Source: a virus
Lineage: Duplodnaviria; Heunggongvirae; Uroviricota; Caudoviricetes
Virus record (IMG/VR): IMGVR_UViG_2651869755_000008
DNA: 15,189 bases
Strand: one strand, 5' to 3'
The position numbers and the translations under genes were made by a program. This document shows positions 8,222 to 14,002 of the stretch, piece by piece. How positions within the stretch are numbered: position 1 is the first letter of the stretch; every line of letters begins with the position of its first letter. The notes under the pieces are model-generated. The model was not told the DNA's origin and searched no databases. It worked only from the letters and a program-made list of their open reading frames with translations.

Positions 8222-8476
8222 ATGAACCAGAAAACACTTGAAGATGTAATCAAAACTGTTCGCGTTTCTGTTGTGGCCGACGTTTGTGGTGTCAGCCAAA
8301 GAGCAATCTACAAATGGATGGATAACGGAAAATTGCCTCGCACAGAATATACCGGCGAAACAAATTACGCTGAAAAAATCGCTCATGCATCAAACGGATT
8401 ATTTTCTGCCGATGCAATTTTAACTATTGGCAGAAATAAAACTACTACGAAAAAGCTGATGGGAGTTGATTCATGA
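8222..8476 (+). CDS. ydaS: YdaS-like Cro/HTH protein, 84 aa
   Basis: ATG at 8222 with GAGG 6 nt upstream; HTH-like VADVCGVSQRAIYKWMDNGKLP. Its stop overlaps the ydaT start (ATGA). The ORF-track N-terminal 24 codons have no SD. Confidence 0.75.
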   Translation: MNQKTLEDVIKTVRVSVVADVCGVSQRAIYKWMDNGKLPRTEYTGETNYAEKIAHASNGLFSADAILTIGRNKTTTKKLMGVDS

Positions 8477-8895
8477 AAATCAAGCATGAGCACATCGAAT
8501 CAGTGTTGTTAGCCCTGGCAGCCGAAAAAGGGCAGGCGTGGGTCGCTAACGCAATTACTGAAGAATATCTGCGCCAGGGGGGCGGCGAATTGCCCCTGGT
8601 ACCAGGCAAGGACTGGAACAATCAGCAGAATATCTATCATCGTTGGTTGAAAGGTGAAACGAATGCGCAAAGGGAAAAAATTCAGAAACTGATCCCTGCG
8701 GTTCTGGCAATTCTTCCTCGCGAGCTGCGTCACCGACTCTGCATCTTCGATACCCTGGAACGCCGTGCATTACTGGCGGCACAGGATGCACTGAGTACGG
8801 CAATTGATGCGCATGATGATGCAGTCCAGGCCGTTTACCGTAAAGCACATTTCAGCGGCGGCGGTTCTCCTGGCGATTCTGTCGTAGTGCATTGA
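8473..8895 (+). CDS. ydaT: YdaT, 140 aa, co-transcribed partner of YdaS
   Basis: The 140-aa product MKIKHEHIESVLLALAAEKGQAWVANAITEEYLRQ... matches my recollection of Rac YdaT in length and position; translationally coupled to ydaS. Confidence 0.8.
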   Translation: MKIKHEHIESVLLALAAEKGQAWVANAITEEYLRQGGGELPLVPGKDWNNQQNIYHRWLKGETNAQREKIQKLIPAVLAILPRELRHRLCIFDTLERRALLAAQDALSTAIDAHDDAVQAVYRKAHFSGGGSPGDSVVVH

Positions 8896-8939
8896 TTGAA
8901 ATTAATCGTACCGAACTGTTTTGTTCGGTATCAGTTAAA

Positions 8940-8960
8940 TGTAACGCTGCGAGCGTTACA
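8940..8960. repeat. Palindromic iteron-like site TGTAACGCT-gcg-AGCGTTACA
   Basis: Perfect 9-bp inverted repeat with a 3-bp spacer, 13 bp upstream of the ydaU start. Confidence 0.6.
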
Positions 8961-8972
8961 AGGTGAAAACAA

Positions 8973-9761
8973 ATGGCTTCAAACTGGATAAAGCTCGAAG
9001 TTATTACGCCGGATAAGCCGGAAATATTCAGGCTTGCTGAGATTCTGAATATTGATCCAGATGCCGCATTAGGGAAAGTCATTCGCTTCTGGGCATGGGC
9101 GGATCAACAAATGATAGACGGTAACGCAGAGTGTAACGCTCGCGGCGTTACAAAAAGTGCAATAGATCGCATCACTTTTATGGCTGGTTTTGCTGATGCG
9201 TTAATTCAGGTTGGATGGCTGGTCGAAACTAATGGTGTGTTGTCGCTTCCTAACTTTGAGCGCCATAACGGGAAAAGCTCTAAAAAACGGGCGGTTACAA
9301 ACGAGAGAGTAACAAAAATACGAGAACTGAAACGAAAAGGTAACGCTGCCAGCGTTACAAAAACGGATCAAAAAGCGTTACCAGAGGAAGAGAAAGAGGA
9401 AGATATAAATACTTATCTCCCCCTAAATCCCCCTCGCCAAAAACGAGCGTCTAAAAAATTCGAACCGGAGGCTATCGAGCTGCCTGACTGGTTGCCGGAA
9501 ACACTCTGGCATGAGTGGGTTCAGTTCAGGCAGGCATTGCGAAAACCGATTCGAACGGAGCAGGGCGCTAACGGGGCGATACGGGAGCTGGAAAAATTCC
9601 GCCAGCAGGGTTTTTCACCTGAGCAGGTGATTCGACACAGCATCGCCAATGAATACCAGGGCTTGTTCGCGCCAAAAGGTGTTCGACCTGAGACGTTACT
9701 CCGACAGGTTAACACCGTCTCGTTACCGGATAGTGCGATCCCGCCAGGCTTCAGGGGGTAA
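8973..9761 (+). CDS. ydaU: YdaU-like replication initiation protein (lambda O analogue), 262 aa
   Basis: Sits directly upstream of the DnaC-like gene in the lambda O/P arrangement; AAGGTGA SD. Contains palindromic repeats inside the coding region. Family assignment is from memory of Rac YdaU. Confidence 0.75.
   Translation: MASNWIKLEVITPDKPEIFRLAEILNIDPDAALGKVIRFWAWADQQMIDGNAECNARGVTKSAIDRITFMAGFADALIQVGWLVETNGVLSLPNFERHNGKSSKKRAVTNERVTKIRELKRKGNAASVTKTDQKALPEEEKEEDINTYLPLNPPRQKRASKKFEPEAIELPDWLPETLWHEWVQFRQALRKPIRTEQGANGAIRELEKFRQQGFSPEQVIRHSIANEYQGLFAPKGVRPETLLRQVNTVSLPDSAIPPGFRG
9132..9152. repeat. Palindromic iteron-like site TGTAACGCT-cgc-GGCGTTACA, inside ydaU
   Basis: Near-perfect copy of the 8940 palindrome; a GGTAACGC half-site lies at 9120..9127. 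Confidence 0.6.
9339..9359. repeat. Palindromic iteron-like site GGTAACGCT-gcc-AGCGTTACA, inside ydaU
   Basis: Third copy. Further half-site-like GTTACA / GTAACA at 9293..9316. Confidence 0.6.
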
Positions 9762-9767
9762 CTGACC

Positions 9768-10514
9768 ATGAAAAATATTGCGGCAGGCGGCATTCTTGAA
9801 CGTATCCGCAGACTGGCCCCGCCACATGTAACCGCCCCATTCAAAACGGTAGCGGAGTGGCGCGAGTGGCAACTTTCCGAAGGCCAGAAACGTTGTGAGG
9901 AGATCAACCGTCAGAATCGTCAGTTGCGGGTGGAAAAAATTCTGAATCGCTCTGGCATCCAGCCATTGCACCGCAAATGCTCGTTTGCGAATTACCGGGT
10001 GCAGAACGACGGTCAGCGATACGCGTTGAACCAGGCGAAATCTATCGCTGATGAACTGATGACCGGGTGTACAAATTTTGCGTTCAGCGGAAAACCTGGT
10101 ACCGGAAAAAACCATCTGGCGGCGGCTATCGGGAATCGCCTGCTGAAAGATGGCCAGACAGTGATTGTGGTTACCGTGGCTGATGTCATGAGTGCTCTAC
10201 ACGCCAGCTATGACGACGGGCAATCAGGCGAAAAATTTTTGCGGGAACTGTGCCAAGTGGATCTGCTGGTTCTTGATGAAATTGGCATTCAGCGCGAGAC
10301 AAAAAACGAGCAGGTGGTGCTGCACCAGATTGTTGATCGCCGGACAGCGTCGATGCGCAGCGTGGGGATGCTGACAAACCTGAACTATGAGGCGATGAAA
10401 ACATTGCTCGGCGAGCGGATTATGGATCGCATGACCATGAACGGCGGACGCTGGGTGAATTTTAACTGGGAGAGCTGGCGTCCGAATGTCGTCCTGCCAG
10501 GAATTGCGAAGTGA
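9768..10514 (+). CDS. ydaV: DnaC-like helicase loader / replication protein (YdaV), 248 aa
   Basis: Walker [12 protein letters not shown] and Walker B LLVLDEIG in an AAA+ DnaC/IstB-like context; directly follows ydaU. Confidence 0.85.
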
Positions 10515-11744: not shown

Positions 11745-12548
11745 ATGAAACCAGAATACTTAAGGAAAATAGAATCATTGCAACGTGAGGTTGATGATTT
11801 CCATCCAGTGCTAAGAGCGCTTCTACCACGTTTGCCGACTGTTACACATGTTGAATATAAGCAAGGACCATCAGAAAAAGGTGCTGATTTTGTCATAATT
11901 AAACGAGATGAGGCATTAGATGAGGAAATATATATTGGGGTTATTTGTAAGGTTGGAAAGATAATTCAGTCAAATAGTGAGGTCGAACGACAAATAGAAG
12001 AGTGTCAATTATACCCACGCTTTATTTCTTCTGGCTCTAAGAACATACATTTGAATGAAATTTGGGTTGTTACTAATTCATCAATCTCAAATAATGCTCA
12101 AGAAAAAATCTACTTAAAATTCAAATCTACAAATATAAAGTTTATAGAAGGTGAGAAAATATGTTCTTTAATCAGTAAATATTACCCAGAGTTTTGGGAT
12201 TTCGAATCCATTAATTATGAGCAATACTTAACAGATACATTGCAAACCATAAGTGATACTCCTGAAAGTTCTTTTTTTGGTAGTGTTGGCATAAATAACC
12301 TTATTGATAGATATGTAAGCAAGGAAGATCATAAAAAACGCAGGCACAGGCCGTTAAAACTGTATAGTGTTGTGAGAGCCGAGAGATTTATTTTTTTAGA
12401 GGGAACTGTTGGCTCCGGGAAAAGTACTTTGCTGAAACAGCTAATTAAAAAAATAAAAGAAGAATATTCTTACGAAAAAGACTACATCCTTCCAGTATTT
12501 TGCCAATACAAGGATGTTCTAGAAAAAAACTCAATATTGAAAATATAA
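11745..12548 (+). CDS. N-terminal part of a frameshifted Mrr-like nuclease / NACHT NTPase gene (Mrr-like domain plus Walker A)
   Basis: AAGGT SD. N-terminal ~150 aa resemble the Mrr-cat restriction-endonuclease fold (VLRALLPRL...KGADFVII...SEVERQIEEC...NEIWVVTNSSISNNAQEKIY...NIKFIEGEKICSLI). Walker A GTVGSGKST lies near the C-terminus. The frame ends 6 codons after an A7 run. Confidence 0.75.
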   Translation: MKPEYLRKIESLQREVDDFHPVLRALLPRLPTVTHVEYKQGPSEKGADFVIIKRDEALDEEIYIGVICKVGKIIQSNSEVERQIEECQLYPRFISSGSKNIHLNEIWVVTNSSISNNAQEKIYLKFKSTNIKFIEGEKICSLISKYYPEFWDFESINYEQYLTDTLQTISDTPESSFFGSVGINNLIDRYVSKEDHKKRRHRPLKLYSVVRAERFIFLEGTVGSGKSTLLKQLIKKIKEEYSYEKDYILPVFCQYKDVLEKNSILKI

Positions 12549-14002
12549 TACAAAGTGTATTAAGTAAGTACAAAATACAACATGATGGGAATATTTTATT
12601 AATTGTTGATTCGGTGGATGAAGTAAAGGAATCACTTGAGGAAAGGCAAAACAACTTCAGGGACATTGTAGAGAAAGTATCCAGGAGTGATAAAGTTCGA
12701 TTACTAGTTGCTTCAAGAATTATGGACTCTCTTCAGGACTATGAAGTTATCGATCAGATGTTTGCAAGATACTCGATAATACCACTTAGCACAGGTCAAA
12801 TAATCGACTTTGTAGATAAAATCTGCAATGACATTAAAATAACAAACAAGCTTAAGAATGGTATAGAAAAAACACCACTATTTAAATTCATTCCCAGGAC
12901 TCCAGTGAGTGCTATTCTTCTAGCAAGAATACTCTCTGATGAGATTAAAGAATTACCATCTACAATGACAGAACTATACTCAAAATACAGTGAGATAGTA
13001 TTGGGACGATGGGATACATCTAAGGGATTATTATCGCAAACAGAATATGATGTAATAAGTAATATATTAGTAGAAATTGCGATGTTTATGATGGATAACT
13101 CTCTAAACTGCATATCAATTTCTGAAGTGCAGGACATGTTTTTAAATTATTTGGCCAAAAGAAACTTGAATGTTGATGAGGACAAACTTTTCAAAAGACT
13201 AATTTATCGCAGTGAAGTAACAACAGTTAATGTTAGAACTAATACGTTCTCATTTCTACACAGATCATTCATGGAGTATTTTTACGCTGAAGGACTTAGG
13301 AAGCGTGGCTTAATAGACATAAATGATAATATTTATGATATTTATTGGGCAAATAGTTATTTCTTCTATTTTGGTTTATTAAGAGACAATGAATATCTTA
13401 TTGATAAAATTAATGAACTTAAACCTAGTAACGATAAAACAAGATTTTTAAGGTTATTTTATAACGGTTCTTTTTATTTGGCTTCATATCTAACTCCGTA
13501 TAAAAAAATAGCAAGGGGAGTCCTTTTATCATATATAGATGCAGGTAAATTATATGTTGATATTCTCCATGGAAATACCGACATCCCGCTGAAGGAGTTT
13601 TCACCAGTAGCTCTTCTTTGTATTTTTACAAAGTGTTTAAGTAACAATTACGCATATGATTTTTTCAAATCTGCCTTGGAAGACTTGTCAGTTCAAATTG
13701 AACAATATGAGGAAATTGGGGAACATATTGATTATGCACGTTTCTTCATAGCATCAACACTGAATGAGCTCGGGGATAAATCCGCATTTGATAGCTTAGT
13801 GGAAAAAAATAAATTAGGTGTTTTGATTAATTTAGGGATAACTCACGTTACAGACGACTCAGGGCTACTAAGTACTACGGTTGATAAGTACCTGAAAAAA
13901 TTCAATAAAAAAGTACGAAGTAACCATGATATGTCTAATTATATATCTAAGTTATATGAGGAATCTACTGGTTCCTTACGTACAAACCTACAAATTCAAT
14001 AA
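12500..14002 (+). CDS. C-terminal part of the same gene (NACHT Walker B to C-terminal helical domain); frame differs from 11745..12548
   Basis: NACHT-type Walker B LLIVDSVDE, sensor-1-like RLLVASR, TPLF / PRTPVSAILLARIL, and FSFLHRSFMEYFYAEG matching the conserved NACHT motif seen in NLRs. The only start before these motifs is the TTG at 12500 with no SD, so independent translation is unlikely. Confidence 0.75.
   Translation: MPIQGCSRKKLNIENIIQSVLSKYKIQHDGNILLIVDSVDEVKESLEERQNNFRDIVEKVSRSDKVRLLVASRIMDSLQDYEVIDQMFARYSIIPLSTGQIIDFVDKICNDIKITNKLKNGIEKTPLFKFIPRTPVSAILLARILSDEIKELPSTMTELYSKYSEIVLGRWDTSKGLLSQTEYDVISNILVEIAMFMMDNSLNCISISEVQDMFLNYLAKRNLNVDEDKLFKRLIYRSEVTTVNVRTNTFSFLHRSFMEYFYAEGLRKRGLIDINDNIYDIYWANSYFFYFGLLRDNEYLIDKINELKPSNDKTRFLRLFYNGSFYLASYLTPYKKIARGVLLSYIDAGKLYVDILHGNTDIPLKEFSPVALLCIFTKCLSNNYAYDFFKSALEDLSVQIEQYEEIGEHIDYARFFIASTLNELGDKSAFDSLVEKNKLGVLINLGITHVTDDSGLLSTTVDKYLKKFNKKVRSNHDMSNYISKLYEESTGSLRTNLQIQ

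Follow-up and report, generated by a model that had tools for sequence, protein, structure and literature searches.

GTAACGC half-sites within and upstream of the initiator gene of a Rac-like prophage as candidate initiator-binding sites and part of a putative lambda-like origin

The DNA analysed here, referred to throughout as the window, is a 15,189-nucleotide stretch (IMG/VR virus record IMGVR_UViG_2651869755_000008) that represents a Rac-like E. coli prophage. It carries palindromes and single half-sites with the core GTAACGC within, and just upstream of, a replication initiator gene at the position of ydaU (Table 1). From the sequence comparisons described below, it is probable that these are recognition sites of the encoded initiator and that, together with the purine tract at 9383-9418, they make up the origin of the prophage in a manner resembling the lambda origin. 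The original prediction had already proposed candidate initiator-binding sites and an origin at this place. This was reinforced by signs of selection at the DNA level, a link across phyla between the sites and the N-terminal domain of the initiator, co-variation of sites and protein, the purine tract and the helicase-loader gene next to it, while the identity given to the gene and the layout described for the sites had to be corrected.

Table 1. Positions of the sites, genes and associated elements in the window
Feature	Position	Strand	Description
Upstream palindrome	8940-8960	.	TGTAACGCT-GCG-AGCGTTACA; arms 9 bp, perfect; non-coding
Cluster 1 palindrome	9132-9152	.	TGTAACGC-TCGCG-GCGTTACA; arms 8 bp; in coding sequence
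Cluster 2 palindrome	9339-9359	.	GGTAACGCT-GCC-AGCGTTACA; arms 8 bp, perfect; linker-coding
Extra half-site GTAACGC	9121-9127	+	12-nt duplication
Final cluster 2 half-site	9375-9381	-	+ strand reads GCGTTAC; other reading frame (A-L-P)
Purine tract and AT-rich stretch	9383-9418	+	AGAGGAAGAGAAAGAGGAAGA (9383-9403), then AT-rich TATAAATACTTATCT; degenerate (GAGAA)n; proposed unwinding and single-strand binding element
Replication initiator gene, 262 amino acids	8973-9761	+	PHROG 2509 'replication initiation protein', E=4.7e-88; ydaU position, Rac-like prophage
ydaV-like DnaC/IstB-type helicase loader gene	9768-10514	+	PF01695, E=3e-20; PHROG 50
Separate 8-bp inverted repeat	8909-8930	+	TACCGAAC-N6-GTTCGGTA; between ydaT and initiator gene

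The three palindromes were found where the original prediction had placed them, each containing one copy of GTAACGC-N5-GCGTTAC (8941-8959, 9133-9151 and 9340-9358). With up to two mismatches allowed, this pattern occurs three times in the 15,189 bp compared with 0.04 expected, and none of 200 shuffled sequences reached three copies. The 7-mer GTAACGC is present ten times in the window against 1.33 expected, with eight of the ten inside 8941-9381. These counts of pattern and 7-mer against expectation rule out a chance origin of the palindromes. The sites inside the gene are at offsets 148-180 (cluster 1) and 366-409 (cluster 2).

The additional half-sites that had been proposed fared differently. 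The one at 9120-9127 stood, with GTAACGC at 9121-9127, whereas 9293-9316 was not counted because it matches only the 5-mer core GTTAC/GTAAC and not the family-invariant CG(C). The hexamer GTAACA was not above chance in the window (11 vs 7.3 expected). The half-site at 9375-9381 had been missed; it starts 23 bp past the preceding one (9352), and the purine tract is directly 3′ of it. The 12-nt duplication is at 9120-9131 (GGTAACGCAGAG ahead of TGTAACGC) and gives rise to both the extra half-site and four residues, ECNA, in the loop GNAxxVT encoded by cluster 1. ECNA is a four-residue insertion relative to all other homologs, and the extra half-site is not kept even in close relatives: some Shigella and E. 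coli copies, such as L089 and L090, are without it, and position 9125 is variable. Insertions resembling ECNA were seen in the Rouxiella, Rahnella and Pantoea homologs.

To place these sites in the wider family, homologous loci were taken from annotated phages, IMG/VR and GTDB (one genome per species), the GTDB set covering Enterobacterales, Pseudomonas, Burkholderiales, Xanthomonadales, Planctomycetota, Verrucomicrobiota and others, with identities of 41-96% in the N-terminal domain (N-domain) of the initiator. Of 74 non-redundant loci, about 60 had GTAACG/CGTTAC at two fixed positions of the gene, with offsets of ~148-197 for cluster 1 and ~343-415 for cluster 2, and the hexamer was nearly absent from 1.5 kb on each side of the gene. 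The density of the hexamer was 12.5 per kb at gene offsets 100-450 compared with 0.29 per kb outside, a 43-fold difference. The cluster 1 palindrome of the window is itself at the family-wide position (gene offset ~148-167), and among close E. coli relatives the changes within sites were mostly in the spacers.

The exact palindrome was also searched for throughout IMG/VR, where 187 copies were found on 120 contigs. Of the 187, 165 were located at offsets -40 to -30, 140-160 or 340-440 of an initiator gene of the family studied here. The motif is thus specific to this gene family, and the outcome that would have refuted the original prediction, a motif frequent genome-wide, was not observed. 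Among the remaining copies, at least three are in family genes that are cut at contig ends.

The arrangement of the sites differs from that first described, in which three sites about 200 bp apart were regarded as the functional unit. The three sites are real, but the layout conserved in the family consists of two in-gene clusters of 7-bp half-sites spaced 11-12 bp apart, plus a (GAGAA)n tract. Neighbouring half-sites started 11-12 bp apart in 221 of 318 pairs, in any orientation and with one mismatch allowed, with most other spacings being 22-24 or 33 bp, and the half-site consensus is G-G-T-A-A-C-G-C-T. In cluster 2, the orientations are usually ++-- (15 loci), +-- (8 loci; the arrangement found in the window) or ++-. 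The distance of ~200 bp from cluster to cluster is conserved, which may simply be the length of the domain encoded between them.

Directly past the final half-site, the junction GCGTTACC(A/T)AGAGAAGAG is kept across phyla, and the purine tract has the family form GCGTTACC(A/T)AGAGAAGAGAAGAGAAGA. Across the 3.3 kb of each locus, the 20-mer with the highest purine content falls in this tract in 54 of 73 cases. Its Arg codons are AGA/AGG in 66% of cases compared with 17% elsewhere, and whichever frame is used, translation of (GAGAA)n yields EEKRR, a peptide characteristic of these proteins. In the window, the tract with its AT-rich 15-mer has a GC content of 35% and a strong A-skew, and is the lowest-GC part of the gene. 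An imperfect inverted repeat at 9395-9424 (AGAGGAAGATA...TATCTCCCCCT) was observed across the AT-rich stretch to the right of the purine tract; it is in a variable mosaic segment and is not conserved in the family. It recalls the lambda origin, where an inverted repeat is located to the right of the AT-rich region.

The segment 9383-9418 is also the mosaic junction of the N- and C-terminal modules of the gene. Close E. coli relatives differ throughout the sequence to the right of ~9384, where other C-terminal modules, as in the 376-amino-acid variants, are joined to the same N-domain. Many E. coli and Salmonella proteins of 374-380 amino acids (P0011-P0058) are 86-99% identical from residue 1 to ~149 and then continue with a different C-terminal part. 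Because the mosaic junction comes directly after the sites, sites and N-domain are inherited as one module, and the conserved half-site and purine tract may act as a recombination joint.

Codon and frame data indicate that selection on the sites acts on the DNA and not on the peptide. Cluster 1 encodes the loop G-N-A-x-x-V-T, the synonymous positions of which are nearly fixed in 58 non-redundant loci: Gly is GGT in 57 of 58 (27% elsewhere in the same genes), Asn is AAC in all 58, Ala is GCT in 51 (23% elsewhere) and Val is GTT in 57 (33% elsewhere). This fixation holds even in hosts with 55-68% GC. The residue before Val can be Ser, Gly, Arg or Thr, with the codon always being AGC, GGC, CGC or ACC and Ser never being encoded by TCN; among Ser, Gly and Arg the amino acid varies, yet the two last bases of its codon stay GC. 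Cluster 2 is located in a poorly conserved linker, where its copies occupy all three frames. In TL-2011b and Samsonia, the cluster 2 palindrome is in another frame and is translated as V-T-P-T-A-L, where the window reads G-N-A-A-S-V-T. The window also has a non-coding copy (8940-8960) and an out-of-frame copy (9375-9381).

These data bear on the possibility that the repeated peptide GNAxxVT is what is conserved, as a feature of the protein, and that the DNA palindrome is a by-product of coding for it. The two in-gene palindromes of the window share a frame and, as had been noticed from the start, encode similar peptides (CNARGVTK and GNAASVTK), and homologs across the family retain GNAxxVT. 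The fixed synonymous sites and the copies that are non-coding or in other frames, in TL-2011b and others as well as in the window, nevertheless contradict a pure peptide repeat, which is scarcely credible as an explanation. The peptide falls in a loop for which the AlphaFold2 model has a predicted local distance difference test score (pLDDT) below 50, as might be expected if the DNA dictates the sequence at this place.

The protein that would read these sites is not YdaU throughout, although the gene had been taken for ydaU. That name is appropriate for the C-terminal part only: in a BLASTP comparison with K-12 YdaU, residues 139-262 alone aligned, to YdaU residues 162-285, with 81% identity over 124 residues. 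The N-terminal 138 residues, the coding sequence of which contains all in-gene sites, are unrelated to YdaU. The DUF1376 family (PF07120) is matched by K-12 YdaU at E=2.7e-26 and not by the window protein, and hhalign gave a probability of 0.1% for a relation of the N-domain to DUF1376, so that BLASTP, Pfam and hhalign all speak against a YdaU-type N-domain. For the N-domain of the window protein there was no Pfam family even at E≤10, no NCBIfam match and no match among PDB sequences. None of the homologs listed in two database searches had a Pfam domain on the N-terminal part, and nearly all of those with a name were called 'hypothetical protein', which is also the RefSeq name of the window protein. 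At E≤1e-3 the N-domain family comprises 6,390 clusters at 50% identity. According to these comparisons the initiator gene is a mosaic, and as its DNA-binding part is not YdaU (DUF1376), what is known of K-12 Rac and oriJ is not transferable to it.

The initiator can be divided into the N-domain (approximately residues 1-125), a disordered linker (approximately residues 131-159) and a C-terminal, DnaT-like three-helix domain (C-domain). The AlphaFold2 model (pLDDT 73.8) has a helix-turn-helix, a beta hairpin and a long basic helix (residues 103-123) in the N-domain, disorder in the linker (131-159), and three helices in the C-domain. A fold search with the N-domain, the putative DNA-binding domain of the protein, returned only weak winged-helix matches. 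The C-domain matches DnaT structures in the PDB (2ru8, E=4.4e-5; 9zbt, E=2e-4). The window protein is below the Pfam thresholds, and PF17948 is passed by relatives with the same N-domain from TL-2011b, VW-6S and epsilon15.

Natural variants of the sites provided a further link to the protein. GTCACG sites were found in three loci (L159, L161 and L114; peptide GHA), GTGACG in one (L164; GDA), GTTGCGC in one (L118; GCA...SAT, with both arms changed) and GTCACA in a Vibrio phage, and in each variant locus the same variant half-site was used at clusters 1 and 2. The basic helix carries the motif RxxTxxRV, which includes T109 and V113 of the window protein, in 60 of 64 GTAACG loci compared with none of the 10 loci with other sites (Fisher p=1.4e-9, calculated without phylogeny correction). 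As the type of site changes with the helix residues, this points to the N-domain as the putative reader of the sites, with the basic helix being part of the reading surface.

The homolog in Salmonella phage epsilon15 (L007) is without GTAACG. Instead, GCGGAC/GTCCGC occurs four times in each of its clusters (offsets 54-100 and 333-368), which are followed by the same AGAAGAGAAG tract. It appears to represent a specificity type that has diverged further while keeping the layout.

A different explanation of the conservation is RNA structure, with the palindromes acting as hairpins in an early polycistronic mRNA to affect its stability, processing or translation. Every palindrome does fold into a stable hairpin of 8-9 bp, all copies are in transcribed sequence, and both arms have changed together in the variant loci, in a compensatory-like manner. 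Against this, the arm sequence was invariant across phyla in a position weight matrix, without free co-variation, many sites are unpaired direct repeats or lone half-sites (++-, +--, +++-), and the spacing tracks the DNA helical repeat. In addition, the type of half-site correlates with two basic-helix residues of the encoded protein, and no Rfam family was matched at E≤1. It is therefore very unlikely that RNA hairpins account for the sites.

If the sites are indeed bound by the initiator, its N-domain would contact the 7-bp GTAACGC half-sites with its winged-helix-like part and the basic helix (K104, R106, T109, R112, V113), and dimers would occupy the palindromes. The half-sites would be roughly on one face of the helix because 11-12 bp is about one helical turn. 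Cluster 2 (9339-9381) would be the main array, while cluster 1 (9121-9152) and the lineage-specific upstream site (8940-8960) could hold more bound protein about 200 bp away, with looping between them being a guess. The assembled complex would then destabilise the neighbouring purine/AT-rich tract, leaving a single strand to be bound by the DnaT-like C-domain, which would recruit the YdaV (DnaC-like) loader and host DnaB. For the C-terminal domain of DnaT itself, cooperative binding to single-stranded DNA has been described, and recruitment of DnaB/DnaC has been proposed (PMC4132743).

The ydaV-like loader of the window is the proposed partner of the initiator, as judged from gene order. In 10 distant loci, the gene 3′ of the initiator encoded a lambda-P-like loader in four, a DnaC/IstB-like loader in one and a DnaB helicase in three. 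A helicase or helicase-loader gene is thus next to the initiator in eight of the 10 distant loci, as well as in the window.

The upstream palindrome, which ends at the start of the Shine-Dalgarno sequence AAGGTG (8960-8965) of the initiator gene, has a narrower distribution than the in-gene clusters. In ~85 close E. coli copies its arms are invariant and only the 3-nt spacer varies (GCG, TAC, CAC, GTG, GCA). Loci from Shigella and E. coli (L089, L090) and from Pantoea (L092) have the palindrome, whereas Rouxiella, Rahnella, Samsonia and nearly all distant homologs are without it. This palindrome is a lineage-specific accessory site, possibly an operator or a third origin site. It is the best candidate for an added autoregulatory site, through which the initiator may limit its own expression.

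Autoregulation, a role that the original prediction had raised as well, could also be the only function of the sites, with an initiator dimer on the palindromes repressing its own operon or blocking transcription through it and the true origin being elsewhere. In iteron plasmids, Rep dimers act on inverted repeats as repressors. The upstream palindrome adjoins the ribosome-binding site and has invariant arms in close relatives, palindromes suit dimeric repressors, and the origin activity of the sites is itself deduced from sequence. On the other hand, most of the family lacks the upstream site whereas the in-gene clusters are nearly universal, and no sigma-70-like promoter on the + strand was found near any site. 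The direct-repeat half-sites, their spacing of 11-12 bp, the (GAGAA)n tract and the position in the linker before the C-terminal module are all origin-like, and there was no other repeat-rich candidate origin within ~1.5 kb on either side in the homologous loci. Operators alone are thus a rather unlikely explanation, although it carries more weight than that of RNA hairpins.

The origin with initiator-binding sites remains our preferred reading, and several points weigh against it. Cluster 2 of the window is small, with one palindrome and one half-site, and its (GAGAA)n tract is degenerate. Conserved in-gene sites could also be operators, and palindrome arms that change together are also expected of an RNA hairpin. 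Recognisable sites are absent in some homologs (L157, L165), and the codon and co-variation statistics were computed without correction for shared ancestry. In the literature searched, there was no experimental report that a member of the family binds such sites or has origin activity. An origin of this type was not described in publications on oriJ, ydaU/ydaV, TL-2011b, Eru-type Stx phages or DnaT-like phage initiators, the paper on Eru-type Stx phages covering different replication modules.

A more specific model can be put forward tentatively, and we consider it possible but doubtful. Here, a compact two-element origin would be contained in the initiator coding sequence and kept from Enterobacteria to Planctomycetota, in which the half-site array is bound by the N-domain and the (GAGAA)n single strand by a filament of the DnaT-like C-domain. 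By analogy, this could be the phage counterpart of the unwinding system of DnaA-box and DnaA-trio. The DNA would then dictate both the GNAxxVT loop and the EEKRR linker, and would also be the joint at which N- and C-terminal modules are swapped.

In the rest of the window, the gene content is that of a Rac-like prophage, with E. coli strain LC-1302-2020 being 100% identical across the compared stretch 8400-9900. The prophage adjoins ttcA, and the genes are in the order intR, xisR, ralR, recT, recE, racC, kilR and sieB, followed by a cI-like repressor gene, a cro-like gene, ydaT, the gene for the 'hypothetical protein' (8973-9761) and ydaV. Two deposited complete phage genomes hold an identical initiator protein, labelled 'DNA replication protein O'. 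In the identical E. coli strain (L001 12346-14604 and 15635-16863), the late prophage region corresponding to window ~11745-14002 has been swapped for a NACHT gene and an IS3 element. The NACHT-domain protein is of 752 amino acids, its gene is directly past a truncated DUF977 gene, and it may be a defence-type cargo.

A homolog of the initiator and a DnaC-like gene were also found on a 41-kb circular 'plasmid' of Pusillimonas sp. T7-7 (NC_015459.1; L290). This record is typed as a non-mobilizable plasmid and its content is a complete, extrachromosomal tailed-phage genome. Either a phage-plasmid or the assembly of a phage in its circular replicating form could be behind it. It was one of only two records returned by a search among plasmids for a minimal replicon built on the initiator gene and, as the one inspected turned out to be this 41-kb phage genome, it does not provide clean minimal-replicon evidence.

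The separate inverted repeat at 8909-8930, which was correctly identified in the original prediction, is unrelated in sequence to the GTAACGC sites. It varies among E. coli copies in the left arm only, from TACCGAAC to TGCCGGAT or TGCCGGAC. All three of the changes keep G-U pairs in the RNA of the + strand and would break pairing on the - strand, which hints weakly, being three changes only, that it may be an RNA hairpin of the early transcript. A scan for intrinsic terminators found none on the + strand, and flagged the palindromes on the - strand only.

The published operator of YdaT is TTGATT-N6-AATCAA. A perfect copy of this operator, TTGATTCATGAAAATCAA, was seen at 8466-8483, where it spans the ydaT start codon (8473) and the 3′ end of the cro-like gene, and is placed as site OM is in CP-933P (PMC9986795). 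With two mismatches, a copy at 8892-8909 was not above chance (4 vs 2.1 expected). The GTAACGC palindromes differ in sequence from the published operator and were rejected as YdaT operators.

The system is of a classical kind, but no earlier description appears to exist of the family, its site, the (GAGAA)n element or the arrangement in two clusters. If the proposed origin is correct, a large family of phage and prophage initiators (~6,400 clusters at 50% identity) would acquire a function, and its origins could be recognised by a signature of GTAACGC half-sites spaced 11-12 bp apart and then (GAGAA)n. Prophage origins in many phyla could be predicted from sequence alone. It would also provide natural specificity variants (GTAACG, GTCACG, GTGACG and GTTGCG) paired with the residues at T109/V113, and a clean case of a DNA signal constraining an overlapping protein sequence. 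Furthermore, Rac-like prophages of E. coli would have at least two unrelated origin-specificity modules on a common backbone of C-terminal domain and loader.

In lambda, the iterons are located inside gene O, the N-terminal domain of O binds them and its C-terminal domain recruits P-DnaB. In the window, too, the gene of the initiator contains its putative sites, mainly where the linker between the predicted DNA-binding and partner-recruiting domains is encoded, and with 21 bp each palindrome is comparable in length to a lambda iteron, which is dyad-symmetric. An AT/purine-rich tract that is strand-asymmetric follows directly to the right, and the helicase-loader gene is next. In both systems, related phages swap the sites and N-domain together as a specificity module whose junction comes immediately behind the sites. 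However, the N-domain of the window is not Phage_rep_O (no Pfam match at E≤10), and instead of four packed direct 19-bp iterons there are 7-bp half-sites in mixed orientation at a spacing of 11-12 bp. A second cluster is present ~200 bp upstream inside the coding sequence of the DNA-binding domain, and the window family has a conserved (GAGAA)n pentamer tract and a DnaT-like C-domain. In the window family the sequence of the site is maintained across phyla; lambdoid iterons, in contrast, already differ between close relatives.

K-12 Rac, with ydaU-ydaV and oriJ, is the same type of prophage at the same integration site (ttcA; intR, recET, kilR, sieB), and has its gene between ydaT and ydaV with the 81% identical C-terminal 124 residues. 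It differs in the N-domain of YdaU, which is DUF1376 without detectable similarity to that of the window, and in having no GTAACGC sites in ydaU. In ydaU of K-12 MG1655 (L002 3972-4078), a repeat (A/C)AGATGTTCAA was observed in four direct and one inverted copies just before the shared C-terminal module. This 8-mer is weakly above chance (3 vs 0.53 expected; 4 of 200 shuffles reached the count) and may be the K-12 counterpart of the GTAACGC sites and a candidate for oriJ. The oriJ origin has been named as active (PMC3945230), and no sequence-level map of it was found in the literature.

The Rep proteins of iteron plasmids (RepA, pi, TrfA, RepE) are winged-helix proteins, and an inverted repeat near the start of rep gives possible autoregulation. 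Similar to what is proposed for the window, these plasmids have short repeated sites on one helix face beside an unwinding element, in direct and inverted arrangements. Binding of Rep proteins to one strand of this element has been described as well (PMC4081077). Finally, the C-domain of the window protein resembles E. coli DnaT, both in its sequence matches to DnaT structures and in its three predicted helices. It differs from DnaT in being fused to a predicted sequence-specific origin-binding domain, whereas DnaT has a PriB-binding N-terminus.

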